Part shown: positions 9,723 through 47,075 of the stretch, piece after piece
Layout: every line of letters begins with the position of its first letter
Position numbering within the stretch: the stretch's first letter is position 1
Assembly (NCBI GenBank): GCA_965249175.1
Contig: OZ252227.1
Coordinates: forward strand, 6,320,043 to 6,384,042
Origin: Vicinamibacterales bacterium
GTDB taxonomy: Bacteria > Acidobacteriota > Vicinamibacteria > Vicinamibacterales > UBA8438
Length of the DNA stretch: 64,000 nt
Reading direction: 5' to 3'
Notes under the pieces: generated by a model
Told to the model about the DNA's origin: nothing
What the model saw: only the letters and a program-made list of their open reading frames with translations
The model's database searches: none
Position numbers and translations under genes: made by a program

Positions 9723-9728
9723 GGAAGT

Positions 9729-19717: not shown

Positions 19718-19728
19718 GGGCTTGACTC

Positions 19729-19824: not shown

Positions 19825-19908
19825 ACACATATCAACCAGACCGTGGTCTCGACCGACGGGGGACGGTGACATGCCTCGCACCGGAGTTCGGACGCTGGCC
19901 AGCCTGAT

Positions 19909-22920: not shown

Positions 22921-23026
22921 GGGCCCGACTGTAGTGCAGAACCGAGTATCTTGTCCCTTGACGGTCTGGGCAGGGTAAGATTTGGAGGTATTTTTCTGAG
23001 GTTTTGGCTCAGTGGAGGGTCGACGC

Positions 23027-25477: not shown

Positions 25478-25500
25478 CCCTGCCTGCGAGAGAGGACACC

Positions 25501-26844: not shown

Positions 26845-26872
26845 CCATATCCCTCATGGGAACAGCACGAGG

Positions 26873-28514: not shown

Positions 28515-28805
28515 TTACTCGGCCAGCCTCACATCGCGCACCGGTCCCGGCAGCCTCAGCGGAAGCGGATGGTCGCACCCCGGACAGACAACACGGTCGT
28601 GTGACGCACCGGCGGACTCGAACGGGCTGACGAAGAACTCCACGTGCAGCAGCCGGCGGCACGCGGTGCATTCAAACGCCACGACGACGCTCTGCGGCTC
28701 GGCCGCTCGCGGGTCGTTGGAGACGTCGACCACGTCGAGGCGACGGCCTGTCACCGTCCCCCGGGCGCCGTCTAGGTCGCCGTCGGTCGGCTTCTTCACG
28801 AGCAT
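28515..28805 (-). CDS. hypothetical small zinc-ribbon-like protein
   Basis: Start trimmed to [14 protein letters not shown]...CPGC cysteine pairs. No family recognised and no clear RBS. Confidence 0.3.
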
Positions 28806-28882
28806 CCGCGAACCGAGGTCCCCGCCCGCCGGCCACCCCACATTGTCGTATTCACCCCGGCACACTCAGGGGATCGGCACCC

Positions 28883-29038
28883 GTCGGGGTCGGTCGTGAA
28901 TACCTCGGGCAACACCTTGAGCGCCACATCGCGGTCGAGCTTGGTGTCGCGGGCGCGATACACTTCGCCCATACCGCCAGCCCCGAGCGAGTCACCCACC
29001 TCGTACGCGCCGATCCGTGTCCCCGGGGGTAGCGCCAT
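28883..29038 (-). pseudogene. Ser/Thr protein kinase N-terminal fragment (~52 codons)
   Basis: [52 protein letters not shown] carries the glycine loop and VALK lysine. Kinase similarity then ends abruptly. Confidence 0.55.
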
Positions 29039-29055
29039 CGTTCTGGTGATCTCGA

Positions 29056-29424
29056 CAGGTCGAGCACGAGGCGAAGACTCCGGTTGCGTCGGGTGCGGTA
29101 CGTTGAGAAGCCACGTCGATCCAACGTCACGACCTCGTGCACGTTGAGCGCCTCGGCAAGCAGCACGAGTGTTCCGTCGGCATAGTCCATAGGCGTGTCA
29201 TCGACGAGCCAGGTCTTCAAGATCTCCAGTTCCGCTGGCGAAGCTGACGACGCCACGGCTCGCTCCCAGCCTTCGGCAGCTCTGCTCCCGAGCGGCTGGT
29301 CGACGAGCGCCGCCTCGAGAATCTCCCGTACGAGTGCCGAAACCGTCTTGCCCTGGGCTTCTGCGCACTTCGCGAGGGCACCCCGCATTGCCGCCTCCGT
29401 GCGGACGGTAACTGTCGTACTCAC
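29056..29424 (-). pseudogene. RHH (CopG-like) antitoxin fused in frame to the C-terminal half of a PIN (VapC-like) domain
   Basis: MSTTVTVRTEAAMRGALAKCAEAQGKTVSALVREILEAAL (RHH pattern), then ...[31 protein letters not shown]...LRLV (PIN C-terminal pattern). The PIN N-terminal acidic residues are missing. Confidence 0.5.
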
Positions 29425-29445
29425 GTATACCAGCGTACTACCGGA

Positions 29446-31032: not shown

Positions 31033-31156
31033 CCATCCCTCCCAAAAGCGTCGGTGGACCGTCGGTTGGGCATCCGAAAACCGTGCCGGGGTCGATCGCC
31101 CGGAGTGTATCATCGGCCTGACCGACGAGCGTGACCGCTCGTTGGCGAGGGGATCC

Positions 31157-32347
31157 ATGGGAACCGACGAGGCGCCGGCTGCGGATCGGGCACGCCGGAG
31201 TGGGATCCACCGCCGCGCGCTCGGCGGTGTGCTGGCGTTGGCGCTTGGTCTGATGTCCTGCGGCGAGACCCCGCCCCCAGCGGCCACTGGTCCGGAGTCG
31301 GTCCCGCCCAACACGTCGCCGTCGTCGCGTGACGCGGCGTTCGTCGTCGATCCGTTCTGGCCACGGGAGCTGCCGGACGGATGGCTGCTCGGCAACGTCG
31401 TCGGCGTGGCCACCGACTCCGCCGACAACGTCTGGATCATCCATCGGCCGAACAGCCAGACCGGAGCAGCGGACACACCGCCCGTGATCGCCTTCAGCCC
31501 CGCCGGCGACGTTGTGCAGAGCTGGGGCGGGCCGGGCGAGGGCTACGACTGGGGGACGCAGACGCACGGGATCCACGTCGACTCTGAGGACAACGTCTGG
31601 GTCGGCTTCGGGGGTGGCCTGCCGTACGACCCGACGAAGCCGAGTACGACCGACAACGCGCTGGTGCTCAAGTTCACGGCGGATGGCGAGTTCCTGCTCC
31701 AGATCGGCGACTTCGGGCGGGGGACGGAAGGGAGCGGCAGCGCGGAGTTCCTCGGCCAGCCGACTGACATCTTCGTCGACACGGAGGCAGACGAGGTCTA
31801 CATCAGCGATGGGTATACGAACCGTCGCGTCATCGTGTTCGACGCGACCACCGGCGCGCACAAGCGGCTCTGGGGCGCGTACGGCAACGAACCGGAGGAT
31901 GCGCCGACGCCCAGATTCAGCCGGGACAACCCGCCGCCGCAACAGTTCAACACGCCCCACTGCGTGGTGGGTGCCGCCGACGGTCTCGTGTATGTCTGCG
32001 ACCGTGGAAATCAGCGCATCCAGGTGTTCGACGGTGACGGCGCGTTTATCACCGAGCGCGTGATCGAGGCGCCCCTCGGTGCGGGTCGAATCGGCGGGAC
32101 TCCGTGGGACCTCGCGTTCTCACGCGATCCGGAGCAAGGCCTGCTCTACGTGGTCGATGGCGGCAGCCATGCGGTTCACACGCTCTCGCGTGACTCGCTC
32201 GATGTCGTTCGCACGTTTGGCCGACGCGGGCGGTGGGCCGGCCAGTTCGAGTCGCCGCACAGTCTGGCGGTCGACTCCCAGGGCAATCTGTTCGTGGGTG
32301 AAACACTCGACGGCCGCCGCGTGCAGAAGTTCGTTCCGGGCGGCTAG
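31157..32347 (+). CDS. NHL-repeat (peptidylglycine-amidating-lyase-like) six-bladed propeller lipoprotein
   Basis: Start trimmed to MGTDEAP...LALGLMSCG (lipobox). NHL repeats FLGQPTDIFVDTEADEVYISDGYTNRRVIVFD, FNTPHCVVGAADGLVYVCDRGNQRIQVFD, FESPHSLAVDSQGNLFVGE. Confidence 0.75.
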   Translation: MGTDEAPAADRARRSGIHRRALGGVLALALGLMSCGETPPPAATGPESVPPNTSPSSRDAAFVVDPFWPRELPDGWLLGNVVGVATDSADNVWIIHRPNSQTGAADTPPVIAFSPAGDVVQSWGGPGEGYDWGTQTHGIHVDSEDNVWVGFGGGLPYDPTKPSTTDNALVLKFTADGEFLLQIGDFGRGTEGSGSAEFLGQPTDIFVDTEADEVYISDGYTNRRVIVFDATTGAHKRLWGAYGNEPEDAPTPRFSRDNPPPQQFNTPHCVVGAADGLVYVCDRGNQRIQVFDGDGAFITERVIEAPLGAGRIGGTPWDLAFSRDPEQGLLYVVDGGSHAVHTLSRDSLDVVRTFGRRGRWAGQFESPHSLAVDSQGNLFVGETLDGRRVQKFVPGG

Positions 32348-32392
32348 CCGTCAACGTTAACCGCTCGCACTCGTCTCATTCTCTGCGTACTC

Positions 32393-33503
<1,111 letters not shown>

Positions 33504-33505
<2 letters not shown>

Positions 33506-33571
33506 GTGGGGAGCGCGAACGCGACGTACTCACCCGAGTACGGCCCACCGCTGATCGCCACCACGATGTAT
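33504..33571. repeat. 68-bp perfect direct repeat, copy A (displaced 3' end of a PQQ dehydrogenase gene)
   Basis: Identical base for base to 43182-43249. The minus strand encodes ...YIVVAISGGPYSGEYVAFALPT*. Confidence 0.95.
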
Positions 33572-33664
33572 GCGCTCGGAGTCATCGGTGGACGAGACGG
33601 AAATGGTCGACAGTGCCACGACCGCGATCAATGCAAACACCGCTGCGAGACATCGATGGCTCAT
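33530..33664 (-). other. orphan 44-codon ORF: RBS plus signal peptide running out of frame into repeat copy A
   Basis: My own translation MSHRCLAAVFALIAVVALSTISVSSTDDSERIHRGGDQRWAVLG*. A GGAGAGG RBS lies 5-6 nt upstream. Too short for the ORF track. Confidence 0.25.
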
Positions 33665-33703
33665 CTGATCCTCTCCGGTCTCTGCGCCTTCATCTCAGTT
33701 CCG

Positions 33704-34384
33704 CTAGCAGCCCAGTCCCTCGCCCTTTTTCATCAGGTTCATATGCTGCTCGGCCTGTTCCAGGCCGCCTTCGCCCTGCTGCCAGCCGATCCGGCCATCG
33801 CCGTTGGCGTCTACTCCGGTGATCAGCTGCTCGGCCAGCGTGGTGAGCTGGCTGACGAGCGCCGATGCCGCGTCCGGCGATTCAGGCGACACGCGACCGG
33901 AAAGCATCTCAATCGCCTTGGCGAGCGCGATGATCGAGTCGGCTCGCTGCACGGTGTTGTTGGCCGACGTCGCCACATGCTCCGCGTGCGTCATCACGCC
34001 CTGGGACGCGCCGTCCGACTTGGCCGCCAGCTCGATGTGCTGGGCGATCCCGGCCGCTGCCTGCTTCACGCCGTAGCCCAGACCAGGCCCGGTGTCCTGC
34101 TCGCTCGGATCCACGGCGTTCAGCACATGCTCCGCGTGCCGCTTCATCGCCCGGAGGTTGTTCGGATCTTCCGCGGCCAGCGCGGCGTGCTGCGCGGCGA
34201 TCGCCGCCTCGGCGAGGGCCGTCGCTAGCAAGCTCTGGCCGTCGGGCGTGTCGCCAAATCCGTCCATTACATGGCCGATGTGTGTATGGGCGGCGGGACC
34301 TTGCGCCGCTGTGGTAGCGCCCCCAAGAGCGAGGCCGACAAACGCCAACGCCGACATCGGGACGAGGTGTGCGGTAGCGCGCAT
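33704..34384 (-). CDS. secreted His-rich helical protein of unknown function
   Basis: 226 aa. Signal peptide MRATAHLVPMSALAFVGLALGGATTAAQG. Recurrent H-x-x-H-type motifs (HTHIGHV, KRHAEHV, THAEHV) and an EF-hand-like DANGDGRIG. Confidence 0.6.
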   Translation of the reverse strand: MRATAHLVPMSALAFVGLALGGATTAAQGPAAHTHIGHVMDGFGDTPDGQSLLATALAEAAIAAQHAALAAEDPNNLRAMKRHAEHVLNAVDPSEQDTGPGLGYGVKQAAAGIAQHIELAAKSDGASQGVMTHAEHVATSANNTVQRADSIIALAKAIEMLSGRVSPESPDAASALVSQLTTLAEQLITGVDANGDGRIGWQQGEGGLEQAEQHMNLMKKGEGLGC

Positions 34385-34512
34385 GGGTGCCTCCTTGCGA
34401 ACGCAATCTTAGGATGCGGGAAACACTAGTCTTATACCGGTCGGCCCTTCGCTCGGCAAGCGAAAACGGGGATGGGCGATGTCACGCTCAAGGATCCTCG
34501 GAGAGGCAAACC

Positions 34513-37500
34513 ATGAAGATGTGTCGGCTCCCTGCCTTGTGTGTCGCGTGCCTCTCACTGCTCGTGGTGGGACCGGTCGCGGCGCAAGACTCCGGCTGGC
34601 GCACCATCGAACTCGACACGGTCGAGGTCACCCGTCCCGACATCACCGTCTCGCCCGACGGCGAGTGGCTGATCTTCACCATGCTCGGCCACCTGTTCCG
34701 GGTGCCGGCCGCAGGCGGCGTGACTGAGCAGCTCACCTTCGGGCCGTACTACGACAAGGAACCAACCTTCTCGCCCGATGGCTCGCAAGTGGCTTTCGTG
34801 TCCGACCGAGACGGCAACGACGGCAATGTGTTCGTGCTGGATCCGGTGTCGGGTCGGATCGCGCAGGTCACGCGTGACGTTCGGTCTGGGTGGACCCGAC
34901 TGACGTGGACGCCGAACGGCCAGGCGATCGTGTATCTGCGATTCGCGAGGATCCCAATGGCCTCGGATGATCTGATACCGGCGCTTGTGCGTCGCGTGTC
35001 CCTGACCGGCGGCGAGCCGGCGACCATCAGTGCTCGGGCGCGGCTGTTCCGCGCGGTGTTCTACCTGCCGGATGGACGTCTGGCGTGGACGGTGGTCGAG
35101 GGTGGGACGACGCTCCGTACGCGGATCGAGGTCGTTCGTCCGGACGGGACGGTGTCTCCGCTGCGCACGCTCCGAGGCTACGCCGATCGCGTCGTCCCGA
35201 GTCCCACGGGGCGCGGACTGTACGGTCGCCACCGCCGGCCGTCGGTCTCCGGCCGCGACGAGGTGAAAACGTTATCGTTCTTTCCGCTTACGAGCGGGGC
35301 TGCGCGCGAGATCGTCTCCCTGTCGTACCGCATGTACTGGGAGCCGAAATTCGCCCTTGCGCCAGATCACACGAGCCTGTACCTGGGGGAGCAGGGGCGG
35401 CTCTGGCGGATTCGACTCCCCAGTGGCACGCGCGAACCGATCCCATTCCGCGCCCGAGTCAGGATGGAGATCCATGAGCCGGCGCCGCCACCCAGATGGG
35501 CGCCGGCGACGCCTGGGACGTCCATGCAGCCGCGCAGTGTGCTGTGGCCGAGGCTCTCGCCCGACGGCGGGACGCTGGTCTTCGGGGTGGCCCACCGTCT
35601 GTGGCGACAACCGCTCGATGCCGGCGAGGCCGAGCGGCTGCTGACTGACGACGGCCTCGCCGGCGAGGCCGAGCGGCCGCTGACTGACGACGGCCTCGCA
35701 CGCGAGGCAGAGCGGCTGCTGCTGGACGGCGGCCTCGAGTGGGCGCCGGCGTTTTCGCCCGATGGTCGCCGGCTTGCCTTCGTGCATCGCCAGGTAGGAC
35801 AGGACCATGTCAGGGTCCTCGACGTCGAGAGCCGTCAGACGCGAACAGTGGCGTCCGCGCGGGGACTGAGCGACCCCAACTGGAGCCCCGATGGAAGGCG
35901 GCTGGTTTTCGTGGAACAGGGCGACACCGGCCGCTCCCGCATTGTCGTCGTCAACGTCGCCGATGGTGACAAAGTGGTCCTCGCCGCCGTCCCGAGGTCT
36001 GGCGCCCGCCCGCATTTTTCCGCGGACGGCGAGTCGGTCTACTTCTCGTCTGGTCCAGGTGACAGCGGGACGGTCTTCCGCATATCGGTACGGCGACGCG
36101 CGCAGCCGCAGCCCATTATCCAGGTGCCTCGCGGCGTCATGGACGGTCTCGTTTCCCCGGATGGTGAATGGTTGGCCTTCCAGCGCAACCAGGAGATCTG
36201 GGTGGCGCCACTTGGCACAGAAGCCGCTGAGGAAGACAGCCTGCGGCGGCTGAGTGCTGAAGGCGGCCGCACGTTCGCATTGACGCCGGATGGCTCAGCG
36301 GCACTCTATGCCGCCGGCGCCAGCGTCTGGCAACGCCCGCTCGCGGGGGGTGAGCCGGAAGAGATCCCCCACCGGTTGACATTGCGTCGCGCCAGGCCGC
36401 GGTCGGTCCTGGTGCGGCGGGTGCGCGTGCTTGATTTCGCCACGGGTGGCTTCAGAGCGGCGACCTCTCTGTTTCTCGAGCACGGGAGCATCCGCTGGAT
36501 AGGCTCCGAACGCGACCACGTTGTTCCACCGGAGACCCAGATCATCGATGCCGGTGACCGGTTTGCCATCCCCGGGTTGTTCGAGATGCACGCGCATGGC
36601 AGCCCGAATGGCCTCCCCTACGGGCCGGCATTCCTGGCCTACGGCGTCACCGCGGTGCGCAACGTCGGCGGCTATCTTGCCTTCGAGAGAGCCCTGGCCG
36701 ATCGCGGGGAAGCCAACGGCAGTGTTCCCCGGTACTTCTTCGCGGGTGAGACCTTCCGCGGCCAGGGCGACCGACTGTCCCTTGACACCGAGGATGAGGC
36801 TCGGGACTTTGCGCGGCGCTGGAAGCACCGGGGCGCGTGGCTGATCAAGGTGTATCAGGACCTGGCGTGGCCGCTGCAACGCGCGGTGGCCGAGGAGGCC
36901 CGACGGCTGGGATTGCCGGTGGCGGGACACGCCGACTATCTGGAGCGAGCGGTCAAGAGCGTCGTCCAGGGGTACGCGAGTCTCGAGCACACGATGCCGC
37001 CAGGTCCGTATGACGACGTGCTCCAGCTGCTGGCGCGGGCCGGCACGAGGTGGGTCCCGACGCTGGCGATACGAAGCGGCAACAATGTGCGACTTCACGA
37101 AGAGCCCGAGCGGCTGGCCGACGGCAAGTTCCTTGCGTTTACGCCGACGTGGCGCGTCCGACAGGCCAGCCGGAACAGCACTGACATCAGGGACGAGTTG
37201 CCTGCGGAGTGGGCGCAGCAACTTGCGAGGATCCGCGCGGCACATCGCCGCGGCGTCACGCCCCTGCTCGGCACCGACATTTGCTGTGGACCATCGCTGC
37301 ACTGGGAACTGGAGTCTTTCGTCGAGGCGGGCATCCCGCCGCTCCAGGTGCTGCGTCTCGCCACGTGGGACGCGGCGGTTGCTGTTGGTGCGGACGACCA
37401 CCTCGGCACGCTGGAGGCCGGCAAGCTTGCGGACGTCGTTTTGCTCGATGCCAATCCTCTGGACGACATCAAGAACACGCAGACCATCTGGCGGGTGATC

Positions 37501-37563
37501 AGAGGTGGCCGGGTGTTCGATCCGGAGACGCTCCGGCGGTCCGCACAGGCTGGCCAGAACTGA
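34513..37563 (+). CDS. secreted PD40/TolB-like beta-propeller fused to an amidohydrolase domain
   Basis: Start trimmed to MKMCRLPALCVACLSLLVVGPVAAQ (GGAGAGG RBS). PD40 motifs (PTFSPDGSQVAFVSDRDG, PAFSPDGRRLAFV, PNWSPDGRRLVFV, PHFSADGESVYF). Amidohydrolase motifs AIPGLFEMHAHG...GTLEAGKLADVVLLDANPL. Confidence 0.8.
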   Translation: MKMCRLPALCVACLSLLVVGPVAAQDSGWRTIELDTVEVTRPDITVSPDGEWLIFTMLGHLFRVPAAGGVTEQLTFGPYYDKEPTFSPDGSQVAFVSDRDGNDGNVFVLDPVSGRIAQVTRDVRSGWTRLTWTPNGQAIVYLRFARIPMASDDLIPALVRRVSLTGGEPATISARARLFRAVFYLPDGRLAWTVVEGGTTLRTRIEVVRPDGTVSPLRTLRGYADRVVPSPTGRGLYGRHRRPSVSGRDEVKTLSFFPLTSGAAREIVSLSYRMYWEPKFALAPDHTSLYLGEQGRLWRIRLPSGTREPIPFRARVRMEIHEPAPPPRWAPATPGTSMQPRSVLWPRLSPDGGTLVFGVAHRLWRQPLDAGEAERLLTDDGLAGEAERPLTDDGLAREAERLLLDGGLEWAPAFSPDGRRLAFVHRQVGQDHVRVLDVESRQTRTVASARGLSDPNWSPDGRRLVFVEQGDTGRSRIVVVNVADGDKVVLAAVPRSGARPHFSADGESVYFSSGPGDSGTVFRISVRRRAQPQPIIQVPRGVMDGLVSPDGEWLAFQRNQEIWVAPLGTEAAEEDSLRRLSAEGGRTFALTPDGSAALYAAGASVWQRPLAGGEPEEIPHRLTLRRARPRSVLVRRVRVLDFATGGFRAATSLFLEHGSIRWIGSERDHVVPPETQIIDAGDRFAIPGLFEMHAHGSPNGLPYGPAFLAYGVTAVRNVGGYLAFERALADRGEANGSVPRYFFAGETFRGQGDRLSLDTEDEARDFARRWKHRGAWLIKVYQDLAWPLQRAVAEEARRLGLPVAGHADYLERAVKSVVQGYASLEHTMPPGPYDDVLQLLARAGTRWVPTLAIRSGNNVRLHEEPERLADGKFLAFTPTWRVRQASRNSTDIRDELPAEWAQQLARIRAAHRRGVTPLLGTDICCGPSLHWELESFVEAGIPPLQVLRLATWDAAVAVGADDHLGTLEAGKLADVVLLDANPLDDIKNTQTIWRVIRGGRVFDPETLRRSAQAGQN
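35620..35736 (+). repeat. in-frame 39-bp tandem repeat x3 inside the PD40-amidohydrolase gene
   Basis: Units at 35620-35658, 35659-35697 (1 mismatch) and 35698-35736 (diverged). They encode AGEAERLLTDDGL / AGEAERPLTDDGL / AREAERLLLDGGL. Confidence 0.9.
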
Positions 37564-37712
37564 GGCGTCTCGTCGCGCGCGCCACGGGCCGCAACGCGTA
37601 AGACCGCTTGATGTTGGCACCCGCGTGCGCTCACCCGGTCTCAAGCCATCCGTGTACACTCGGAGGCGCACGGACGTTGAAGTGGCGACTTGGCCTTGCG
37701 GGAGGTATGGAC

Positions 37713-38852
37713 ATGAGGCGACGACTGCTCGAGTCGCTCGGTGCGACAACGGTGTTCACAACCCTCATGGTGCTCCTGCAGCTCACCACCGTGCCGGTCG
37801 TCGGCCAGGCTCCGAGTGCGACCGCGTGGGGGCATCCAAACCTGGAGGGCATCTGGCTCGACGTCTACGCCACACCCTTTGAACGGGCGCCAGAGCTTGG
37901 CGCTCGAGAGTTCGCGACCCCCGAAGAGCGTGCCGCATTGGATCAGGCCCGTATGGGAAACGCAGGGCGTGACCGGCGCGGCCCGCCGGGGAGTCCGCAA
38001 GACGTGTCCGGGGCATACAACGCCGTCTATACCTCGGTGAAGCCAGCGGGTCCACGCACGTCGCTGGTCGTCGATCCACCGAACGGGAGGATTCCCGACT
38101 TGACGCCCGAGGCCCAGCGCGAGGACGAGGTCCGGCGCCAGTGGCGTGTCATGCTCATGCGGAACACGCCGACCTGCGAGCAAGACGCACCCGCTTGCGA
38201 GGGCGGGCAATTCGGGCCACCATCGCCGCGTCGGTTCGATGTCCCCTCCTTCTACAACACGTTGCGCATGAACCGCCACGACGGCCCTGAGGACCAGAGT
38301 TTGGGCGATCGGTGCATGCTTGGCGCCACACCCGATTTCAACGGGTTCCGCCGCATCGTGCAGGGCGGGGAGTCGATCGCGATCGGGTATGACACCGGGC
38401 AGGGCCAGGGGTTCCAGCGCGTGGTCTACCTGAGCGGGAGCCATCCGGCCAGCCAGATTCGTCTGCGGCACGGGGACTCACGTGGCCGCTGGGAGGGCGA
38501 TTCGCTGGTCATCGAGACCACGAACTTCTCGCCCAAGTTCCCCTACCGCGGTTCGGGTGAGAACCGGAAGCTCGTCGAACGATACACGCGGGTCGACGAG
38601 GATACGCTCGAGTACGAACTGACGATTGAGGACCGGACGGTGTGGGTGGCGCCGTGGACCGTCCGGCAGGAACTGAAGCGTCAGAGTGATGAGCAGAATC
38701 GGATTTACTATGAGCCGCGGTGCCACGAAGGGAACTATGGATTGGCCGCGATGTTCATCGGTGCGCGGGTTCGCGAGCAGGAATTTACGGCCGGGGGTGG
38801 TCCTAATCCGTTCTCATTGGACACCACCACGGGCGGCGGTGGTGCGCGGTAG
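37713..38852 (+). CDS. secreted protein of unknown function, tandem paralog 1
   Basis: GGAGG RBS and second ATG chosen. Signal peptide. Colinear with the next gene; most positions are identical by eye (…WGHPNLEGIWLDVYATPFERAPELG…GRWEGDSLVIETTNFSPKF…YYEPRCHEGNYGL…). Confidence 0.7.
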   Translation: MRRRLLESLGATTVFTTLMVLLQLTTVPVVGQAPSATAWGHPNLEGIWLDVYATPFERAPELGAREFATPEERAALDQARMGNAGRDRRGPPGSPQDVSGAYNAVYTSVKPAGPRTSLVVDPPNGRIPDLTPEAQREDEVRRQWRVMLMRNTPTCEQDAPACEGGQFGPPSPRRFDVPSFYNTLRMNRHDGPEDQSLGDRCMLGATPDFNGFRRIVQGGESIAIGYDTGQGQGFQRVVYLSGSHPASQIRLRHGDSRGRWEGDSLVIETTNFSPKFPYRGSGENRKLVERYTRVDEDTLEYELTIEDRTVWVAPWTVRQELKRQSDEQNRIYYEPRCHEGNYGLAAMFIGARVREQEFTAGGGPNPFSLDTTTGGGGAR

Positions 38853-38879
38853 CGAGTCGCGATGTCAGGAGGCATGGAG

Positions 38880-40019
38880 ATGAAGCGACGACTGCTCAAG
38901 TCGCTCGGTGTGGCGATGCTGATCACGAGCGCGATGGTGCTCGTGCAGCTCACCTCGGTGTCGGTGGCGGGACAGGCTCCGAGCGCGACCGCATGGGGCC
39001 ACTCCAACCTGGAAGGCATCTGGCTAGATGTGTATGCCACGCCCTTCGAGCGGGCGCCGGAGCTTGGCGATCGCGAGTTCGCCACGGCGGAAGAGCGAAC
39101 CGCACGGGATCAGGCCCGAATGATCAACCCGGGGCGCAACCGGCGCTCGGACCGCGCAGGGCAGGACGTTGCCGGCGCATACAATGCCGTCTTTACCTCG
39201 GCGAAGCCGGCTGGTCCACGTACGTCGCTTGTGGTCGATCCGCCCAACGGGAGGATTCCCGCCCTCACCCCGGAAGCCCAGCGGCAGAACGAACTACAGC
39301 GAGAGTGGCGTCTGATGCTCCTGCGAAACACGGAGACCTGCCAGAGGGAAGCTCCAGGCTGCTCCGGCGGGGAGTACGGGCCACCGTCTGCGCGCAGATT
39401 CGATGTCGCTCCGTTCTACAACACGTCGCGCATGAACCGCCACTTTGGCCCGGAGGATCAGAGCTCGGGCGACCGGTGCATGTCAGGTCGCACACCCGAT
39501 TTCAACGGGTTCCGCCGCATCGTACAGGGCGAGGATGCGATCGCGATCGGCTATGACACTGGGCAGGGCCAGGGGTTCCAGCGCGTCGTCTACCTGAGCG
39601 GGAGCCATCCGGCGAGCCAGATCCATCTGCGGCATGGGGACTCGCGTGGTCGATGGGAGGGTGACACGCTGGTCATCGAGACCTCGAATTTCTCGCCAAA
39701 GTTCCCCTTCCGCGGGTCGGGCGCGAACCGTCTGCTCGTCGAACGGTATACGCGTGTGGATGCAGACACGCTCCAACACGAGATCACGATCGATGATCCG
39801 ACGGTGTGGGCGGCGCCGTGGACCGTTCGGCAGGAACTGAAGCGTCAAAGTGACGAAGAGAACCGAATCTACTACGAGCCGCGGTGCCACGAAGGGAACT
39901 ACGGCCTGCCGGCCCTGCTCATCGGCGCGCGCGTGGATGAGCAGGCGTTTGCGGCGGGGCGCGGGCCGGATCCGTTTTCCATGGATACCGCCACGTGTGT
40001 CAATGGCTTACCGGAGTGA
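38880..40019 (+). CDS. secreted protein of unknown function, tandem paralog 2
   Basis: Same length as paralog 1 (1140 nt), same RBS/ATG arrangement (AGGAGGcatggagATG), same motifs. Confidence 0.7.
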   Translation: MKRRLLKSLGVAMLITSAMVLVQLTSVSVAGQAPSATAWGHSNLEGIWLDVYATPFERAPELGDREFATAEERTARDQARMINPGRNRRSDRAGQDVAGAYNAVFTSAKPAGPRTSLVVDPPNGRIPALTPEAQRQNELQREWRLMLLRNTETCQREAPGCSGGEYGPPSARRFDVAPFYNTSRMNRHFGPEDQSSGDRCMSGRTPDFNGFRRIVQGEDAIAIGYDTGQGQGFQRVVYLSGSHPASQIHLRHGDSRGRWEGDTLVIETSNFSPKFPFRGSGANRLLVERYTRVDADTLQHEITIDDPTVWAAPWTVRQELKRQSDEENRIYYEPRCHEGNYGLPALLIGARVDEQAFAAGRGPDPFSMDTATCVNGLPE

Positions 40020-40025
40020 GGAGCG

Positions 40026-41024
40026 ATGATGCGAAACTGGTTCAGAGGATCGACGGTTGTCGTGGCGCTGGCCGCCGCCATTGTGGGTGCCGTTGTCTCG
40101 GTCGCGGTGACCAGTACGGCCGGGCAAGGCCAAGACCAAGATCAAGACCAAAGCCAGGCGCCGCGTCCGGCGCAAACGCCCGACGGCAGGCCAAACTTCA
40201 ATGGCGTATGGCAGGCCAACAACGAAGCGCATTGGGACCTGGAAGCCCACGACGCACGTCCGGGGATGGTGACGCAGGAAGGCGTCTACCCATACGAGTA
40301 CGCGAGGGTGCCCGCAGCGCCCGTGGTGGCGCTAGGTGCCGCGGCCGGAGTGCCCGGGTCGTTGGGAGTCGTGGGGGGTGACGGTCGGATCCCCTACACA
40401 CCCGAAGCTCTCCGCAGTAAGCAGGAGAACGCCGAGAACTGGATCGACCGCGATCCAGAGCTCAAGTGCTACCTGCCCGGTATTCCGCGCGCGATGTATA
40501 TGCCCTATCCCTTCCAGATCGCCCAGGGCACGGACAAGATCCACATGACGTTCGGTTTTTCCAACGCCGCGCGTGTCATCCATCTGAACGACGTCACCGG
40601 GCCCCCGGACTATACCTATATGGGGCATTCGGTCGGACGGTGGGACGGGGACACGCTGGTCGTTGACGTGACGTACTTCAATGGCAGGACCTGGTTCGAC
40701 AGGGCCGGAAACTTTCATGGTGAGGACTTGCAGCTCACAGAGCGGTTCTCGCCGATGACGCCCGACGCCATCTGGTATGAAGTGACGGTTACTGATCCGG
40801 AGACGTTTACCCGCCCGTGGACGATCGCGATGCCGCTGTATCGGCGTCTTGAACCGAGTGCCACAGTGCTGGATTATCCCTGCATCGAGTTCGCCGAAGA
40901 GTTCATGTATGGGCACTTGCGGAGGGAGCAGCTGGTGAAGCGATGGGAAGGCGAGACCATGATCGTGGAAATCACTCGCAAGGTTCCGCCTGGCGATCTC
41001 CTTCACGAGTGGTATCGACGGTAG
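40026..41024 (+). CDS. secreted protein, distant member of the same family
   Basis: Starts 6 nt after the previous stop. Signal peptide plus a QDQDQDQ linker. Shares GRWDGDTLVVDVTYFNG..., ...ERFSPMTPDAIWYEVTVTDPETFTRPWT... with the corresponding regions of the two paralogs. Confidence 0.7.
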   Translation: MMRNWFRGSTVVVALAAAIVGAVVSVAVTSTAGQGQDQDQDQSQAPRPAQTPDGRPNFNGVWQANNEAHWDLEAHDARPGMVTQEGVYPYEYARVPAAPVVALGAAAGVPGSLGVVGGDGRIPYTPEALRSKQENAENWIDRDPELKCYLPGIPRAMYMPYPFQIAQGTDKIHMTFGFSNAARVIHLNDVTGPPDYTYMGHSVGRWDGDTLVVDVTYFNGRTWFDRAGNFHGEDLQLTERFSPMTPDAIWYEVTVTDPETFTRPWTIAMPLYRRLEPSATVLDYPCIEFAEEFMYGHLRREQLVKRWEGETMIVEITRKVPPGDLLHEWYRR

Positions 41025-41055
41025 TGCGCCGTCAGACAAGAGGGAGGCAACACCC

Positions 41056-41517
41056 ATGAGAGCGAATCACGTGATCGGGGTCCTGATTGGGGTCGCAGGG
41101 ATCTGTGCGTGGACGGCGGGAACCGGTGTGCCTGTCACGGCGCATCACGCGTTCGCGGCCGAATTCGACGCGGACAAGCCGGTCGAGTTCAGTGGCACGG
41201 TCACCGAAGTCGAGTGGATCAATCCCCACGTCTGGATCCACATTGACGTGACGCGGGATGACGGCACCGTGGAGACGTGGGCGTTCGAAGCTGGTACGCC
41301 GAACGTGCTGTTCAGGCGGGGCTTTACGCGGGACTCGCTCCTGCCCGGAACCGACGTCATGGTCGATGGGTATCAGGCGAAGGATGGAACCAACCGGGCG
41401 AACGGGCGAGACGTCACGTTTGCCGACGGGACCAAGCTGTTTCTCGGGTCGTCTGGCACCGGGGCACCCTACGAACTGGCACGACCCGGTGTAGACACCG
41501 CGGATCCTCCGCGCTAG
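41056..41517 (+). CDS. DUF6152-like secreted protein
   Basis: AGGGAGG RBS and signal peptide. AHHAFAAEFDADKPVEFSGTVTEVEWINPHVWIHIDV...WAFEAGTPNVL fits my recollection of DUF6152. Confidence 0.6.
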   Translation: MRANHVIGVLIGVAGICAWTAGTGVPVTAHHAFAAEFDADKPVEFSGTVTEVEWINPHVWIHIDVTRDDGTVETWAFEAGTPNVLFRRGFTRDSLLPGTDVMVDGYQAKDGTNRANGRDVTFADGTKLFLGSSGTGAPYELARPGVDTADPPR

Positions 41518-41550
41518 GCGGTTAGGTTGGCCCCGGTCGGTTGACAGGGT

Positions 41551-43143
41551 GTGAGCGCGAAGCCAGGCGGAGCAGTCTACCTCTCGCCGTTGAGAGGGTT
41601 CTGTCTGGTTGGGTTCTTCGCACTCGGTCTCACTGCGTTCGTTCTCGTTGACTCCGTCAGGCAGAACCCAGGGGTTCAGCGGTCGTTTCTCGGCGCCGGC
41701 GTCTTGCTGCTCGCCTGGAGCGTCCCCGTGTTCGGGCTGGCTCAGCACACGGGCCGAACGCTGACACTTGCGGTCGTTCTTCGAAAGCAGCACTACATAC
41801 AAGCCAGCGCGCAGCTCGTCTTCCTGCTGTATTGGGGCTGGTACTGGCGTCCGGTCTACGACTCGGCCCTTCTCATCGCCGCTCAACTGGTCTTTGCCTA
41901 TGCGTTCGACATGCTGCTGTGCTGGTCGCGACGCGATAGGTACACCCTTGGGTTCGGCCCGTTCCCTGTCATCCTCAGCATCAACCTGTTCCTCTGGTTC
42001 GCGGATGATTGGTTTTACCTGCAGTTTCTTCTGGTGGCGCTGGGCTTCGCGGCTAAAGAGCTGATCCGGTGGAACAAGCAGGGACGGCAAGTCCACATCT
42101 TCAATCCCTCGTCGTTTCCGCTCGCTGTTGTCTCGCTCGCCTTGATTCTCACCGGTACCAGCGACCTCACGTGGGGCCAGGACATCGCGACCACACAGTT
42201 CTTTCCTCCACACGCGTATCTGGTGTTGTTCCTGGTCGCGCTGCCAGGGCAGTACCTCTTCGGCGTGGCATCCATGACGATGTCCTCCGTGATGGCCGCC
42301 TACGCGTTCGGGCTCCTCTACTTTGCCGCGACGGGCGTCTATTTTTTCTACGACTCGTATATCCCCATTGCCGTGTTTCTTGGCATGCATCTCTTGTTCA
42401 CGGACCCGTCCACGGCGCCGAGGAGTGAGGTGGGGCGCATTATGTTCGGGGTGCTCTACGGCTTCAGCACCGTGGCGCTGTATGCGCTTCTTGGTCGTGC
42501 GGGCGTGCCGACCTTTTACGACAAGCTGCTCCTCGTGCCTGTGCTGAACCTCTCTATTCAACTGCTGGACCGCGTGGCCTCAACGGGTTGGCTCCGGCAG
42601 TTCGATCGCGTGGCGCTTGGCGGCTCGAGTAGCCCGCGCCAGCGTCATCTTGCCCATATGCTGGTCTGGGCGGCAGTGTTTGCGGTCATGAGCGCCGTCC
42701 ACGGTGTGGGCGATCGTCATCCCGGCCAGTGGGTGCCGTTTTGGCAGGAGGCCTGCAGCCAGGGGCGAACGCATGCCTGTCCGTATCTCGCTGACATGCA
42801 GGAGACGTACTGTAGGAGTGGGTCCGGGTGGGCATGCAACGAAGCCGGCATCCTTCACGTCGCGCTGGCTCGCTCGGGAGAGGATCGTCGCCGGCTCGAC
42901 CCGGCAGACGCCGCAGGGGCGCTCGGGCGCGGATGCGACCTTGGCTTCGGGCCGGCGTGCCAGAACCTCGCGAGGCTAACCTCAGGGCTCAGCTCGTTTG
43001 AGCACGGACCACCGACGCTTCAGGACTATCCGATCATCTTGCGCGGCACGAAGGGACCGATCACGGACCGCTCACCAGCGGCACTGTATGCTCGAGCGTG
43101 CAGCCAGGGCTGGGCCAACACATGTAGTGGAGGCGAGAGGTGA
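41551..43143 (+). CDS. polytopic membrane protein with a C-terminal Cys-rich (Hcp/Sel1-like) repeat region
   Basis: 530 aa with a GTG start. About 10 hydrophobic segments, then ACSQGRTHACPYL..CRSGSGWACNEAG..GCDLGFGPACQNL..ACSQGWANTCSG. Confidence 0.6.
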   Translation: MSAKPGGAVYLSPLRGFCLVGFFALGLTAFVLVDSVRQNPGVQRSFLGAGVLLLAWSVPVFGLAQHTGRTLTLAVVLRKQHYIQASAQLVFLLYWGWYWRPVYDSALLIAAQLVFAYAFDMLLCWSRRDRYTLGFGPFPVILSINLFLWFADDWFYLQFLLVALGFAAKELIRWNKQGRQVHIFNPSSFPLAVVSLALILTGTSDLTWGQDIATTQFFPPHAYLVLFLVALPGQYLFGVASMTMSSVMAAYAFGLLYFAATGVYFFYDSYIPIAVFLGMHLLFTDPSTAPRSEVGRIMFGVLYGFSTVALYALLGRAGVPTFYDKLLLVPVLNLSIQLLDRVASTGWLRQFDRVALGGSSSPRQRHLAHMLVWAAVFAVMSAVHGVGDRHPGQWVPFWQEACSQGRTHACPYLADMQETYCRSGSGWACNEAGILHVALARSGEDRRRLDPADAAGALGRGCDLGFGPACQNLARLTSGLSSFEHGPPTLQDYPIILRGTKGPITDRSPAALYARACSQGWANTCSGGER

Positions 43144-43173
43144 GCGCGCGAACGCGTGCCGGTGAGCGGTGCT

Positions 43174-45192
43174 CTACATCGAGGTGGGGAGCGCGAACGC
43201 GACGTACTCACCCGAGTACGGCCCACCGCTGATCGCCACCACGATGTATTGCCGGCCGTCAAGCAGGTACGTCATTGGCGACCCTGACTGCGGCGCGGGC
43301 ATGAAGACCGCGCCGACATCGACACCGGTCGCCTTGTCGTACGCGCGGAGCATGGCGCCCCGCCCGTCTTCCGTCGCGTGGTAGCTGCACTCGCCGATAA
43401 CGACCAGTGTCTTGGTCACCAGCGGTCCGACGAGTCCGGCGCAGAGCTCGCCCGTGCGCGGGATCTCGAGATCGGCCAGCGCCGGGTGAAGACGCACGCG
43501 GTCCGGTGTCTCGCCGTGTGGTGTCTGCCAGATGAGTTCCCCCCGGTCGAGGTCGATCGCCGAGAGCCGGCCATACGGCGGCTTCGACAACGGCAGTCCC
43601 CGCACGTTCAGATCGCGCAGGCCGCCATGGCCGACCCCGTGCATCGGCGTGCCCTTGACGTAGCGCATGTCCGAGACGTCGCCGCTGGGCGGAGGGATCA
43701 GCTCCCACGAATAGAAGGCGGTGCGCGACGGCACGTAGACGACGTGGGTTTCCGGGTCGTATGCCCCGCCGGGCCAGTTCGTGCCGCCGCTCCCGGCCCC
43801 GAGTCCGAGCGTGGCGATCGGTCCTTCCTCGCGACTAACGACCGGTGGGGTGAAGATCGGGCCCAGCTTGTAGCGCGACACGACCGCCTCGGCCTCCGCC
43901 CGCAGCTCTGGCGTGAAGTCGATCAGGTCGTCGAACGACGAGCCCTGCTTGTCATAGGGCGGAGGCTTCGTCGGGAACGGCTGCGTCGGCGCGTACCACT
44001 CACCCGGGACGTCACCCTGCGGCACCGGCCGCTCTTCGATCGGCCAGACCGGCTCGCCCGTGACCCGGTCGAAGACGTAGAGGAAGGCCTGCTTGCTCGG
44101 CACCGCAACCGCTTTGATCTCGCGGCCGTCGACGGTGATGTCCGCGAGGATCGGCGGGCACGCCATGTCGAAACCCCAGAGCGGGTGGTGCACGAACTGG
44201 AAGTGCCACAGGCGCTCGCCGGTCCGCAGGTCGACGGCGACCAGGCTCTCGCCGAAGAGGTTGTCACCTGGTCGATGACCGCCGTAGTAGTCGCCCGTGG
44301 GTGTCTCGACCGGCAGGTAGACGATGCCGAGATCGGCGTCGACGGAGATCTGCGTCCAGACGCCGTTGTTCCCGTTGACACCCCAGGAATCGTTGACCCA
44401 CGTCTCGTGGCCGACCTCACCCGGCCCCGGAACCGTCCGGAACGTCCACAGTCGCTCGCCGGTACGGACGTCGAACGCCTGGACCAGTCCCTTGGTGTTG
44501 TTGTGGGTCGGTGGAGCCGGCGCATCGGCGAACGCGCCGCCGACGATGACCACATCGCGGGCCACCGTCGGTGTGGCGTGCAGGCCGATCTCACCGCTCA
44601 CCGGGTCGATGCGCCGGCCCTCGCCGTATACCGCCGCCGCCTTCAAATCGATGCGGCCGTCCGTCCCGAAGCCGGGCACCCTCAGCCCTGTTGCGGCATC
44701 GAGCGCGACGAGCCGGAATCCCAGGGTGACATAAAGGACGCGCGCGTCCGTTCCGTCGGTCCAATACGACAGACCGCGGCCCGAGAGGAGACGCGGGGCG
44801 CCGGCGGCGCGCTCCCCCTCATCCTCCCCATGGACCCAGCGAAGCTCCCCGGTGCCGGCGTCGAGGGCGACGACCGACCGGCGGGTGCCGCCGGTCGCGA
44901 ACAGCACGCCGCCGACCATGAGCGGCGTTCCCTCCAGCTTGAACTCGGGGCGCGGGCCGAGGTTGTCGGTCTTGAAACGCCACGCCACTTCGAGATCGGC
45001 GAAGTTGGACGCGTCGATCTGATCCAGCGGGGAGTAGCGTGTATGGGCGATGTCGCCGCCGTACGCTGGCCACTCGCCGGCGGCGGTCGACGGTGGGGAT
45101 TGCGCCTGGGCGAGCACACCCGCGGTCACCCATGCGAGCGCCGCGGTGACCGCGAACGCCGGTCGCAGTGTTCGGGTCAGGAAGCTGGACAT
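43174..45192 (-). CDS. soluble PQQ-dependent dehydrogenase (alcohol/glucose dehydrogenase family)
   Basis: 672 aa with a signal peptide. GEWPAYGGDIAHTRYSPLDQI, EVAWRF, GTPLMVGGVLFATG, VVALDAGTGELRWVH, eight-bladed W-motif pattern. Confidence 0.85.
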   Translation of the reverse strand: MSSFLTRTLRPAFAVTAALAWVTAGVLAQAQSPPSTAAGEWPAYGGDIAHTRYSPLDQIDASNFADLEVAWRFKTDNLGPRPEFKLEGTPLMVGGVLFATGGTRRSVVALDAGTGELRWVHGEDEGERAAGAPRLLSGRGLSYWTDGTDARVLYVTLGFRLVALDAATGLRVPGFGTDGRIDLKAAAVYGEGRRIDPVSGEIGLHATPTVARDVVIVGGAFADAPAPPTHNNTKGLVQAFDVRTGERLWTFRTVPGPGEVGHETWVNDSWGVNGNNGVWTQISVDADLGIVYLPVETPTGDYYGGHRPGDNLFGESLVAVDLRTGERLWHFQFVHHPLWGFDMACPPILADITVDGREIKAVAVPSKQAFLYVFDRVTGEPVWPIEERPVPQGDVPGEWYAPTQPFPTKPPPYDKQGSSFDDLIDFTPELRAEAEAVVSRYKLGPIFTPPVVSREEGPIATLGLGAGSGGTNWPGGAYDPETHVVYVPSRTAFYSWELIPPPSGDVSDMRYVKGTPMHGVGHGGLRDLNVRGLPLSKPPYGRLSAIDLDRGELIWQTPHGETPDRVRLHPALADLEIPRTGELCAGLVGPLVTKTLVVIGECSYHATEDGRGAMLRAYDKATGVDVGAVFMPAPQSGSPMTYLLDGRQYIVVAISGGPYSGEYVAFALPTSM
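43182..43249. repeat. 68-bp perfect direct repeat, copy B (inside the 3' end of the intact PQQ dehydrogenase gene)
   Basis: Identical to 33504-33571. Confidence 0.95.
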
Positions 45193-45290: not shown

Positions 45291-47075
45291 CTACTGCGCG
45301 GCCGCGCTCGCCGCGGGCACGTTGCCGCGCGGTTTGAGCGCCGCGATACCGGGTCCCGCGTCGGTCCGGAGGGTGAACCAGAGCGTCCCGTCCGCGTCCC
45401 GATCGAGCTTCGGTGTATGGGCTCGGTATTCTGGGAACGGGAAGTAGGTGAACTCCTGGGTCTGCTGGTCGAACTTCACCAGCGAGTTGTAGATCCCGTT
45501 CTCGACCCACAGGTTGTCGTCATCGTCCGGCCACAGGTCGTAGGGGTTGCCATCCTTCAGCGGCAACTCGAACTCCGTGACCTCCCCGGTCACCGGGTCG
45601 ACGCGGGAGATGGCGTTGCCAAAGTAGTGCGCGGCCCACACCTTGCCCTTCGAATCGATCGTCGGCCGACGCGCGGGGTTCGACATCGGATACGACGTCC
45701 ACTCGGCCGTCTCCTGGTTGTACATGAAGATCGCCGGGGTATGCAGCCCGACCGCCCAGACCCGATCCTGTCGGTCGACGACGATGCCGTAACCGCTGAA
45801 CCCGGCAAGCGGCTCCCACTCGGTGAAGTCTTTCGTCGCCAGCTCGAACCGCGCGATCTTTCCCGACGAGGCGAAGTAGGTGTACCAGAAGTTTCCGCGC
45901 GAATCGACCCAGAGACTGTGCGGGCCGGCGCCCGTGGTGGGCATCGGGTAGCGGGTCATCACGTCGGTGACCGGGTCGAGCTCGCCGAAATGGTCGCCGC
46001 TCAACTCTACCCAGTACACCTTGCCGCGGTATTCCAGGATGCCGTGGGGGGTGACGTTGATGTTGTCGGGGTTGTCGATCCAATACTCGGTCGTCCTCGT
46101 GGCGAAGTCGGGGTCGTGCGTGTCCACTTTCAGGATGGCGTTCGACCCGTTGCCCGAGACCCAGATGACCCCTGGGTCCGCCGTGCTGGCCCAGACGCTG
46201 TGAATGCTCCCGCTCGGCGTCACCCCGTTCGAAAGTGGCCGCGGCGGCGGTGCGCGGTTCAGCTCATACTGGATGTACACCGCCTGCGACAGCGCCGCTT
46301 CGTCCCGCACCAGCGGATCGAGCTCGAGGTCGCGCGGTACGGAGCCCGGCCCGAAGTTCTCCGCCAGATACTGGATGATGCTCTCCTTCTCCTCCATCGA
46401 CACTAGGTCGTAGGTTACCTGCGGAACGCCCGCCGCCATGTTGGCGACACGGCCGTTCGGATCGAACATGCGGTCGACCGCGTGTCGCCACCCCGCTTCG
46501 TTCTTGCGACCGCGGCGGTGGAACCCGGCGGGGCCGTGGCAGCCGAAGCAGGAGCGAAGCATGACGTCGCGGGCGGGGCTCGGTGGATAGAGAGTGTCGA
46601 AATCGACCAACTCCGCCACGCGATCGTCCGACGCCCGCCCGCCGTAGTTCCGCTGCGCCGTCGCGCCGCGCGCGCCGGCGCCCTGTGCCGTGGCGGGCGT
46701 GGTGGCGGTCACCTCGAGATTCGCCGTGGTGGTTCCTCCCGGCGTCACGGGGACGGTCGCGACCGGTGAGCTGAACCCGTCTTCGAGCACCTGCACGGTA
46801 TACGTGCTCGGCGGCAGGTTGAAGATCTGATAGCGGCCGCCGACGGTGTACACGGTGTACGAGATGCGATGCACCGAATCCCGCGCCTTCACGCGGAAGG
46901 CCCTGATCTCCCCCTGGTCGGCTGTGACGCGGCCGGCGATGACGCCGGGCGCCTGGTTGTCCTGCGCCGCGGCCGGCGCGGGCCTGCCGAGCGACGCCAC
47001 GCTCAGCGCGGCAAGTGAGAGGAGCACGGCGATCGGGGACGTGCGACGGCGCGGGGAGGTCGGTCGTGTTTCCAT
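45291..47075 (-). CDS. secreted CarboxypepD_reg-like domain / c-type heme motif / Vgb-lyase-like beta-propeller protein
   Basis: 594 aa with a signal peptide. GVIAGRVTAD...YQIFNLPPSTYTVQVLEDGF, then CFGCHGPAGFH (CxxCH), then propeller repeats (GPHSLWVDSRGNFWYTYFASSGKIARF...). Confidence 0.75.
   Translation of the reverse strand: METRPTSPRRRTSPIAVLLSLAALSVASLGRPAPAAAQDNQAPGVIAGRVTADQGEIRAFRVKARDSVHRISYTVYTVGGRYQIFNLPPSTYTVQVLEDGFSSPVATVPVTPGGTTTANLEVTATTPATAQGAGARGATAQRNYGGRASDDRVAELVDFDTLYPPSPARDVMLRSCFGCHGPAGFHRRGRKNEAGWRHAVDRMFDPNGRVANMAAGVPQVTYDLVSMEEKESIIQYLAENFGPGSVPRDLELDPLVRDEAALSQAVYIQYELNRAPPPRPLSNGVTPSGSIHSVWASTADPGVIWVSGNGSNAILKVDTHDPDFATRTTEYWIDNPDNINVTPHGILEYRGKVYWVELSGDHFGELDPVTDVMTRYPMPTTGAGPHSLWVDSRGNFWYTYFASSGKIARFELATKDFTEWEPLAGFSGYGIVVDRQDRVWAVGLHTPAIFMYNQETAEWTSYPMSNPARRPTIDSKGKVWAAHYFGNAISRVDPVTGEVTEFELPLKDGNPYDLWPDDDDNLWVENGIYNSLVKFDQQTQEFTYFPFPEYRAHTPKLDRDADGTLWFTLRTDAGPGIAALKPRGNVPAASAAAQ

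Follow-up and report, generated by a model that had tools for sequence, protein, structure and literature searches.

A 68-bp duplication of a dehydrogenase 3' end brackets an insertion of envelope genes without a recognizable integrase in a Vicinamibacterales chromosome

Genomic islands that integrate at the 3' ends of tRNA or protein genes are flanked by direct repeats of the target 3' end, restore the target gene and have a precise empty site in relatives. Cis-mobilizable elements (CIMEs) are remnants flanked by attachment (att) sites that carry no recombinase and are mobilized by a related integrative and conjugative element. The target duplications of transposons have known lengths far below 68 bp, and comparative-genomics surveys have described transfer hotspots that lie between conserved core genes and contain no mobile-element genes. 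For type VI secretion system (T6SS) and rhs loci, a proposed route is homology-facilitated illegitimate recombination, with 3' regions left behind as orphans (PMC5361080). Here we analyse a 64,000-nucleotide stretch of a soil/marine acidobacterium of the order Vicinamibacterales (the window; assembly GCA_965249175.1, contig OZ252227.1, positions 6,320,043 to 6,384,042), in which a 9.7-kb block of envelope genes lies between an mscS-type channel gene and a PQQ-dependent dehydrogenase gene and is bracketed by a 68-bp direct repeat of the dehydrogenase 3' end. We observed an empty site in a sister genome, a right junction shared with a more distant relative, a truncated gene at the left junction, breaks in divergence at both ends of the insert and no recombinase in the block. 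With about even confidence, we favour an import anchored by homology and independent of recombinases, in which the resident 3' end was displaced.

The two copies of the 68-mer (copies A and B; Table 1) are identical at 68 of 68 positions and diverge right outside the repeat on both sides; by our own estimate, the chance expectation of an exact 68-nt repeat in 64 kb is about 1e-32. Read through copy B, the dehydrogenase ends in ...ALPTSM* (...GEYVAFALPTSM), and copy A in the dehydrogenase frame gives ...ALPT (YIVVAISGGPYSGEYVAFALPT*). The TAG of copy A is a CTAG read on the reverse strand, and the same CTAG holds the mscS stop codon (33503-33505). Where the dehydrogenase body would be expected 5' of copy A on the gene strand, a truncated signal-peptide open reading frame (ORF) in a different frame is found instead. 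This agrees with the original prediction, made from the letters of the window alone, which had reported the perfect identity and the immediate divergence outside it, had recognized copy B as the last 22 or so codons of the intact minus-strand dehydrogenase and had placed copy A against the convergent mscS stop with no gene body upstream. The 68-mer is single-copy in every other relative examined, including the sister genome. Both copies have a C (33543/43221) where the sister genome, L118, and two other related loci, L123 and L001, have a G; this shared, window-specific base fits duplication of a resident sequence better than import of an att site.

L118 was found through a protein (P0241) 96% identical to the dehydrogenase in a search of 5.8 billion proteins. 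Its flanks are 92-97% identical to those of the window, with synteny on both sides of the insert. Window positions 43182-45165 correspond to L118 12026-10043 (94.9% identity) and 29446-33571 to L118 16079-11959 (93.5%), and these two alignments overlap on one 68-mer, with 1 mismatch. The L118 dehydrogenase ends in ...ALPT*, with its stop overlapping that of mscS. When the 9,678 bp are taken out of the window, the remainder aligns to L118 without gaps and is 98-99% identical across the junction, which indicates that the repeat bounds a true insertion, that zero resident bases were lost and that the ancestral tail-to-tail arrangement is real. That arrangement of mscS and dehydrogenase without the block had been anticipated from the window alone, and L118 is a relative of just this kind, with a single 68-mer. 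Because the stop codons overlap, only an insertion that duplicates the overlap would leave both genes intact, and a duplication that keeps both genes intact probably explains the survival of this outcome.

At the left end of the insert (junction J1), a signal-peptide gene, which we call Y, is cut after 31 codons and runs on into the 68-mer in another frame; because of the cut and the out-of-frame fusion, J1 appears to mark an illegitimate joint. The remnant, Y-prime, has no homolog in any fetched locus or among 1.84 billion representative proteins, and the related loci L116 and L112 part from the window exactly at the Y-prime linker. Gene Y as a dehydrogenase paralog recombined in frame was considered and rejected, as the frames are one base apart. 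At the right end (junction J2), the 11 nt just 3' of the 68-mer, as read on the gene strand (CGATGTAGAGC), are common to the window and to L123, which was reached via members of the dehydrogenase 90% cluster and has different DNA beyond them. Because both J2 and the adjoining 68-mer are common to L123, the right junction would have been inherited, via homology in the dehydrogenase 3' end, and not newly made. TSM or TSV endings occur in several distinct alleles of the same 90% cluster. A candidate extended mscS relic 3' of the dehydrogenase in L123 was rejected (score 13 against 12.8±2.1 for random segments, not significant); a 4+9-nt match is left there as a hint.

The distribution of J2 is contrary to the dehydrogenase tree, ((window, L118), L123), for which the nucleotide identities are 94.9%, 90.9% and 91.2%: L123 has the junction, as the window does, whereas L118 lacks it. 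Compared with the L116, L123 and L124 genomes, third-codon-position identity is 0.90-0.955 in the block and 0.78-0.85 in the flanks (the PQQ dehydrogenase, a Vgb-lyase-like gene at 45291-47075, an arylsulfotransferase-like (ASST-like) gene at 29446-31476 and mscS). Informative sites are L123-like at 43172-43181 and L118-like from 43239, which places the switch within 43182-43238, inside the 68-mer. Together, the third-position divergence breaks and this switch argue that the ends of the insert are recombination boundaries. Further out, the informative sites of the flanks are mosaic, which indicates that homologous exchange is frequent in the clade. We favour a duplicated structure that arose recently, on an L118-like background and from the resident 68-mer, because copy A is non-coding yet has 0/68 differences, because the derived base stands in both copies and because of the divergence breaks; an old duplication is disfavoured.

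Relatives of the block occur in three other loci. L116, reached by a search with the 530-residue membrane protein of the block (p530), shares window positions 33700-33735 and 34471-43159 at about 95.5% identity, with the body of the secreted-protein gene sec226 deleted; its neighbours are a DUF5916 gene on one side and NIPSNAP, PSCyt1/PSD1-domain and DUF1501 genes on the other. L124 shares 36788-37222 and 37600-43166 at 95-96% identity; there, the cluster adjoins an inverted mscS, and sec226, most of the PD40 gene and the NIPSNAP gene are all missing. In both L116 and L124 the ends of the cluster differ from those of the window and no 68-mer flanks it. The third locus, L123, continues after its junction with the L116 right flank reversed (L116 12176-21593 = L123 22033-12580, 93.5%). 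J2 followed by this reversed flank argues that, in the L116/L123 arrangement, the same dehydrogenase junction is followed by about 10.5 kb of extra genes and then by the cluster, and the secondary junction at 43160-43170 of the window would mark the loss of that 10.5 kb. The window block appears from these comparisons to be a plastic variable region in shortened form and not a discrete element. In the L116, L123 and L124 loci, the called genes include no recorded integrase family.

We propose that, in an ancestor, mscS and the PQQ dehydrogenase stood tail to tail with overlapping stops, as in L118. DNA of a related strain would then have entered, bearing a variable envelope-gene region already joined to its own dehydrogenase 3' end via ...CGATGTAGAGC; J2 in L123 and the same region in L116 and L124 are evidence for donors of this type. 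One incoming end may have been exchanged by ordinary homologous recombination within the final ~60 bp of the dehydrogenase gene. The second end, broken within a secreted-protein gene and lacking homology, would have been joined illegitimately 68 bp upstream of the dehydrogenase stop, either on the sister chromosome or through circularization of the fragment and a Campbell-type crossover in the 68-mer. The outcome would be a functional dehydrogenase longer by two codons, a 9.6-kb cluster and the resident 68-bp 3' end orphaned beside an intact mscS, and an enzyme encoded by the insert would be unnecessary for the whole process. Recombination between the 68-bp copies could in turn delete the insert precisely, which makes a presence/absence polymorphism possible. 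In this scheme, the identity of the donor, the direction in which DNA was transferred and the molecular way in which the illegitimate joint formed are inferred.

Homology-facilitated illegitimate recombination has an anchored end and a free end, and both are recognizable at this locus: J2 and the 68-mer are homologous with L123, and J1 is non-homologous, lies at an arbitrary point of the donor and leaves orphan copy A beside mscS. The displacement of 3' ends (C termini) in T6SS effector-immunity and rhs loci is alike in its homology anchor, its non-homologous other end, the resident 3' end orphaned downstream and the absence of a dedicated recombinase (PMC5361080). Alternative toxin tips are exchanged there, whereas at this locus the old 3' end and its replacement are the same over 68 bp; the 9.6-kb envelope-gene cargo, the clean duplication and the retention of every resident base are further differences.

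Several points weigh against the import that we favour. The searches made with Y-prime yielded no donor with a full-length gene Y, and the fetched loci contain no exact window-type right junction. A duplication, instead of a deletion, at an illegitimate joint would need a second template or a circular intermediate. Copy A is seen in the window alone. The region also adjoins mscS in L124, though inverted, a hint that their association may predate the split of the window from L118. Finally, the unusually stable CGATGTAG hairpin at J2 (z=-3.46) is left unaccounted for by the model.

The greater age hinted at by L124 is the core of the best surviving alternative, which we nevertheless consider unlikely: an insertion, made together with the duplication on the first arrival of the large region, that predates the window/L118 split, after which L118 lost the region through the 68-bp repeats or acquired an empty allele, with gene conversion keeping the copies identical. 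Such a history would explain why the window shares J2 and the TSM ending with the more distant L123 and L124, why the closer L118 lacks them and why mscS adjoins the region in L124; deletion between the repeats would recreate the L118 sequence exactly, and the mosaic flanks speak for frequent homologous exchange. However, at about 5-10% divergence several substitutions would be expected in a non-coding copy A, and 0/68 are seen, with the derived base in both copies. At third positions, moreover, the distance of the block from the L116/L124 blocks is about a third of that between the flanks and their L123/L124 counterparts, and copy A was not found in L116, L123 or L124.

Quite unlikely, in our view, is a non-autonomous integrative element for which the 68-mer serves as att site and a tyrosine or serine recombinase is encoded elsewhere in the genome. 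A precise, conservative insertion with long direct repeats at a gene 3' end and with the gene restored is what such an element would leave, and integrative elements of actinomycetes have repeats of this order of length. The 68-mer also contains a dyad (GTACTC-ACCC-GAGTAC within GGTGGG...CCCACC) and gives better folds than its shuffled controls (z -2.1 to -2.7); for copy B with its linker (43150-43270), z=-3.46 and 0/200 shuffles equal it. The 8 nt just 3' of the 68-mer on the gene strand, CGATGTAG (43174-43181), match the inverted start of the 68-mer, (A)TACATCG; 7-nt inverted repeats (43174-43181 and 43243-43249) thus stand on either side of copy B, and the same 8 nt occur in L123. Against this stand the ends of the block, which vary, and the cluster of L116, L123 and L124, which lies among ordinary genes without att-like repeats. 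One end of the block cuts a gene, the 68-mer is single in the other relatives examined, and a search of viral contigs with the 68-mer core and Y-prime gave no match. No integrase cognate to the site is visible. The window contains a single tyrosine recombinase, an integron integrase that lies 28 kb away and is both frameshifted and truncated. That the hairpin-forming 68-mer is a genuine attachment site for a recombinase encoded elsewhere, with the CGATGTAG footprint as part of the site, seems to us improbable; if true, integrase-less envelope-gene clusters would switch at this site and between strains, a new class of trans-mobilized cargo in Vicinamibacteria.

Scans of every block ORF against Pfam, NCBIfam and PHROGs found no recombinase, transposase or phage family, in line with the reading of the letters alone, and the intergenic gaps of the block are too short to hold a decayed integrase. 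Of the features of an integrative element, the locus has direct repeats derived from the target (68/68) and a precise empty site in a relative (L118, gapless); a recombinase inside the element is absent, and constant boundaries with att sites wherever the cluster is present were not found (L116 and L124). It therefore resembles integrase islands in the repeats of the target 3' end, the restored target gene and the empty site, and is unlike them in having no integrase or excisionase (also among the called genes of L116, L123 and L124), in its variable boundaries and in the gene truncated at one end. Like a CIME, the window cargo is flanked by direct repeats and carries no recombination genes; unlike a CIME, it has no cognate element seen for this site, and the repeat is duplicated in the window lineage alone. 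The original prediction had read the repeats as attL and attR of an integrated element that supplied a replacement end and whose integrase might have been lost. Insertion into the dehydrogenase 3' end survives from that reading, given the empty site in L118. A discrete island that brought an attP-like end and later lost its integrase does not fit the evidence: the cluster (95-97% identical) consists of ordinary chromosomal genes in L116, L123 and L124, within a longer and differently arranged region, J2 is shared with L123, the left end cuts a gene, and the composition differs only mildly from that of the flanks. An end imported as an att site fits less well than duplication of the resident one, as both copies hold the window-only base. 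Duplication by another route, named as the alternative at the time, is favoured by the evidence.

The proposed comparison of composition with the flanks brought out only this mild deviation. The GC content at third codon positions (GC3) is 0.75-0.77 from p414 to p530, 0.80-0.83 in sec226 and the PD40 gene and 0.81-0.88 in the flanks; tetranucleotide correlations are 0.86-0.87 between block and flanks and 0.91-0.94 among flanks. A mildly deviant block fits a donor of the same family. A transposon or insertion sequence (IS) was rejected: the block has no transposase, comparison of its two ends by eye showed no terminal inverted repeats, and a 68-bp duplication is too long. An integron-cassette origin was rejected as well, since reading the boundaries of the block and of sec226 revealed no attC-like site and the integron integrase of the window is a pseudogene; a strict attC pattern search matched neither the block nor the integron array, which has attC-like sites at 8.7-14.7 kb.

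Copying within the genome is a further alternative, and one we hold to be very doubtful. Template switching or staggered-break repair at the overlapping stops, with the cluster copied from another locus and synthesis resumed 68 nt upstream, would derive both copies from the resident sequence and act like a very long target-site duplication; it would give perfectly identical copies that include the lineage-specific base, needs no recombinase and could end the copied segment inside a gene, and the 68-mer hairpin could stall replication. Against it, J2 and its adjoining 68-mer are common to L123, hence the right junction appears to have been inherited. An assembly artefact that joined two strains or loci through the 68-bp sequence is hardly credible: the assembly is of metagenome type and a 68-bp repeat could confuse a short-k-mer graph, but the window proteins lie on a 6,640,284-bp contig, which is not expected from a short-read graph, the Y-prime/68-mer and J2/68-mer junctions must exist physically, J2 occurs independently in L123, and a near-identical TSM allele lies on a separate 188,949-bp contig with close copies of mscS and p530 (a contig that probably has the same arrangement as the window).

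The insertion that we attribute to homology-anchored import lies at a position that varies widely among relatives. In L002 and L004 the dehydrogenase stands directly against the NHL-repeat gene (window 31490-32347), and in L001, L003 and L009 the two are separated by 1.5-2.8 kb unmatched to mscS or the block genes; the position between dehydrogenase and NHL-repeat gene appears to be a hotspot. It is like other hotspots between core genes without mobile-element genes in that its contents vary, from none (L002, L004) to mscS (L118) or other sequence. Such hotspots are usually without a junction footprint, whereas this locus keeps one, the 68-bp duplication. The mscS gene is itself a discrete module (32390-33505), with homology to metagenome relatives (L081-L085) that runs from about 3 nt before the start to the stop; in the JGI metagenomes only the gene itself is shared, with no context. 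L124 has the exact unit inverted. Compared with L002 and L004, mscS would be an earlier insertion at the junction of dehydrogenase and NHL-repeat gene, with a 5-nt CTAGC overlap with the dehydrogenase end.

The coordinates of the block and its edges are given in Table 1. The gene content first described for the block, secreted and membrane proteins of unknown function and a PD40-amidohydrolase, holds, and a DUF6152 gene that had gone unlisted is added to it. In L116 and L117 this gene likewise stands beside a gene for a 530-residue membrane protein, and in L124 it stands upstream of two fragments of that gene. The three tandem paralogs p414, p385 and p332 are 96-98% identical to the L116 and L124 genes. 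The p530 protein matches RnfD/NQR2 weakly and no other family. Comparison of p385, p530 and sec226 with solved structures suggested no function, and an exact-protein look-up of the window PQQ dehydrogenase, mscS and sec226 returned no record.

Table 1. Features of the insert, its junctions and the adjoining genes (window coordinates)
Feature	Position	Strand	Description
mscS-type mechanosensitive channel	32393-33505	+	Pfam MS_channel_2nd/3rd; convergent with dehydrogenase, stop codons overlapping
Copy A of 68-mer	33504-33571	-	Orphan PQQ dehydrogenase 3' end in its original position against the mscS stop, as in L118 11959-12026
Insertion relative to empty site	33572-43249 (equivalently 33504-43181)		9,678 bp
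Left linker Y-prime	33572-33702	-	Shine-Dalgarno, ATG 33664, 31 signal-peptide codons, cut, fused out of frame to copy A (J1)
sec226	33704-34384	-	Secreted 226-aa protein, function unknown; single-gene module with leader, 33703-34470
PD40 beta-propeller-amidohydrolase fusion	34513-37563	+	Pfam PD40, Amidohydro_1; 95% identity to L116 gene
p414	37608-38852	+	Secreted, family-less; one of three tandem paralogs (37608-41024)
p385	38862-40019	+	Secreted, family-less; one of three tandem paralogs
p332	40026-41024	+	Secreted, family-less; one of three tandem paralogs
DUF6152 gene	41056-41517	+	Pfam PF19649, E=4.4e-32
p530	41551-43143	+	Polytopic 530-aa membrane protein, function unknown; widely conserved, relatives 70-95% identical
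Secondary junction	43160-43170		11 nt: CGGTGAG (native p530 downstream, as in L124 and L116), then CGGT, 4 nt of unknown origin
Junction J2	43171-43181	-	GCTCTACATCG = CGATGTAGAGC on gene strand; gives SM* ending
Copy B of 68-mer	43182-43249	-	Last 22 codons + 2 nt of the functional PQQ dehydrogenase
PQQ-dependent dehydrogenase	43174-45192	-	Intact; Pfam PQQ E=1.9e-177; two extra codons (SM) from junction

The PD40-amidohydrolase ORF is open from 34387, with a probable start at ATG 34513. The gene contains an in-frame 39-nt tandem repeat (AGEAERLLTDDGL-like) in three copies in the window (35620-35736) and two in L116 (3633-3710), a copy-number polymorphism. The L116 gene also has a perfect 275-nt direct duplication (5098-5372 = 5546-5820); L116 is a 7x long-read contig on which the gene is called as three ORFs, and the duplication is probably an assembly or consensus error and not biology.

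Several genes of the region behave as separate units. Together with its leader of ~85 nt, sec226 has near-identical boundaries in the unrelated contexts of L112, L119 and L120-L122, where the gene and leader are shared and nothing more; nearly all of the unit is deleted in L116, and in L115 sec226 adjoins a PQQ dehydrogenase gene. The conserved leader (34385-34470) is a candidate regulatory sequence. Just downstream of p530, the NIPSNAP gene of L116 (11610-12100) forms an insertion of ~0.5 kb relative to L124 (reverse complement ~1303-1310), between GCGTGC and CGGTGAG, another gene-sized indel bounded at gene ends. A second, diverged module (L116 17433-20017, L123 14167-16769) encodes 294-aa and 406/412-aa proteins and DUF6152 and is paralogous to p332/p414 with DUF6152, which suggests that secreted unknowns of the p332/p414 type and DUF6152 work together. 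It adjoins PSCyt1/PSD1-DUF1501 and VgrG-like (Phage_GPD / Phage_base_V) genes.

Elsewhere in the window, positions 4068-20000 hold a degenerate chromosomal integron. Its integrase pseudogene (4486-5223, minus strand) matches TIGR02249 with 228.6 bits over model positions 28-248 of 315, with the N-terminal piece in another frame (4877-5449), and attC-like sites (CTAAC...GTTAG/GTTAT) lie at ~8776-8833, 9729-9802, 10840-10897, 13953-13977 (a half site) and 14584-14650. Transposase genes of ISL3 (7012-8283) and IS5/DUF772 (15680-17086) type break up the array, as do two IS256-type elements that are both bordered by inverted repeats (12113-13399 and 18351-19682). About 690 bp at 28753-29445 are absent from L118 and contain an N-terminal fragment of a Ser/Thr kinase (28796-29038, minus strand) and a 190-aa ORF; L124 holds a full kinase-PD40 gene at this place, of which the window version is a decayed remnant. 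This indel relative to L118 has no comparable repeat and so provides no second example of the mechanism. An apparent ~100-nt repeat at 28883-28986 was rejected as a repeat element, as it is a conserved Ser/Thr-kinase coding fragment. Two paralogous clusters of genes for PSD/PSCyt-domain, HXXSHH and ankyrin-repeat proteins (23000-28510 and 47194-52971), ~24.2 kb apart and 65-84% identical in nucleotide sequence, flank the whole region.

The event that we favour is of an ordinary kind and implies no new mechanism or function; its footprint is unusually clear. With filled, empty and longer alleles at hand, the locus offers a clean natural case in which a cluster of several genes, none of them for an integrase or transposase, entered a bacterial chromosome, and it shows how a duplication can preserve two overlapping convergent genes after an insertion, with a presence/absence polymorphism that can be tested. 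More broadly, it points to gene-level modularity in uncultured Vicinamibacteraceae, in which sec226, mscS, the NIPSNAP gene and the DUF6152-p530 module would be movable units.

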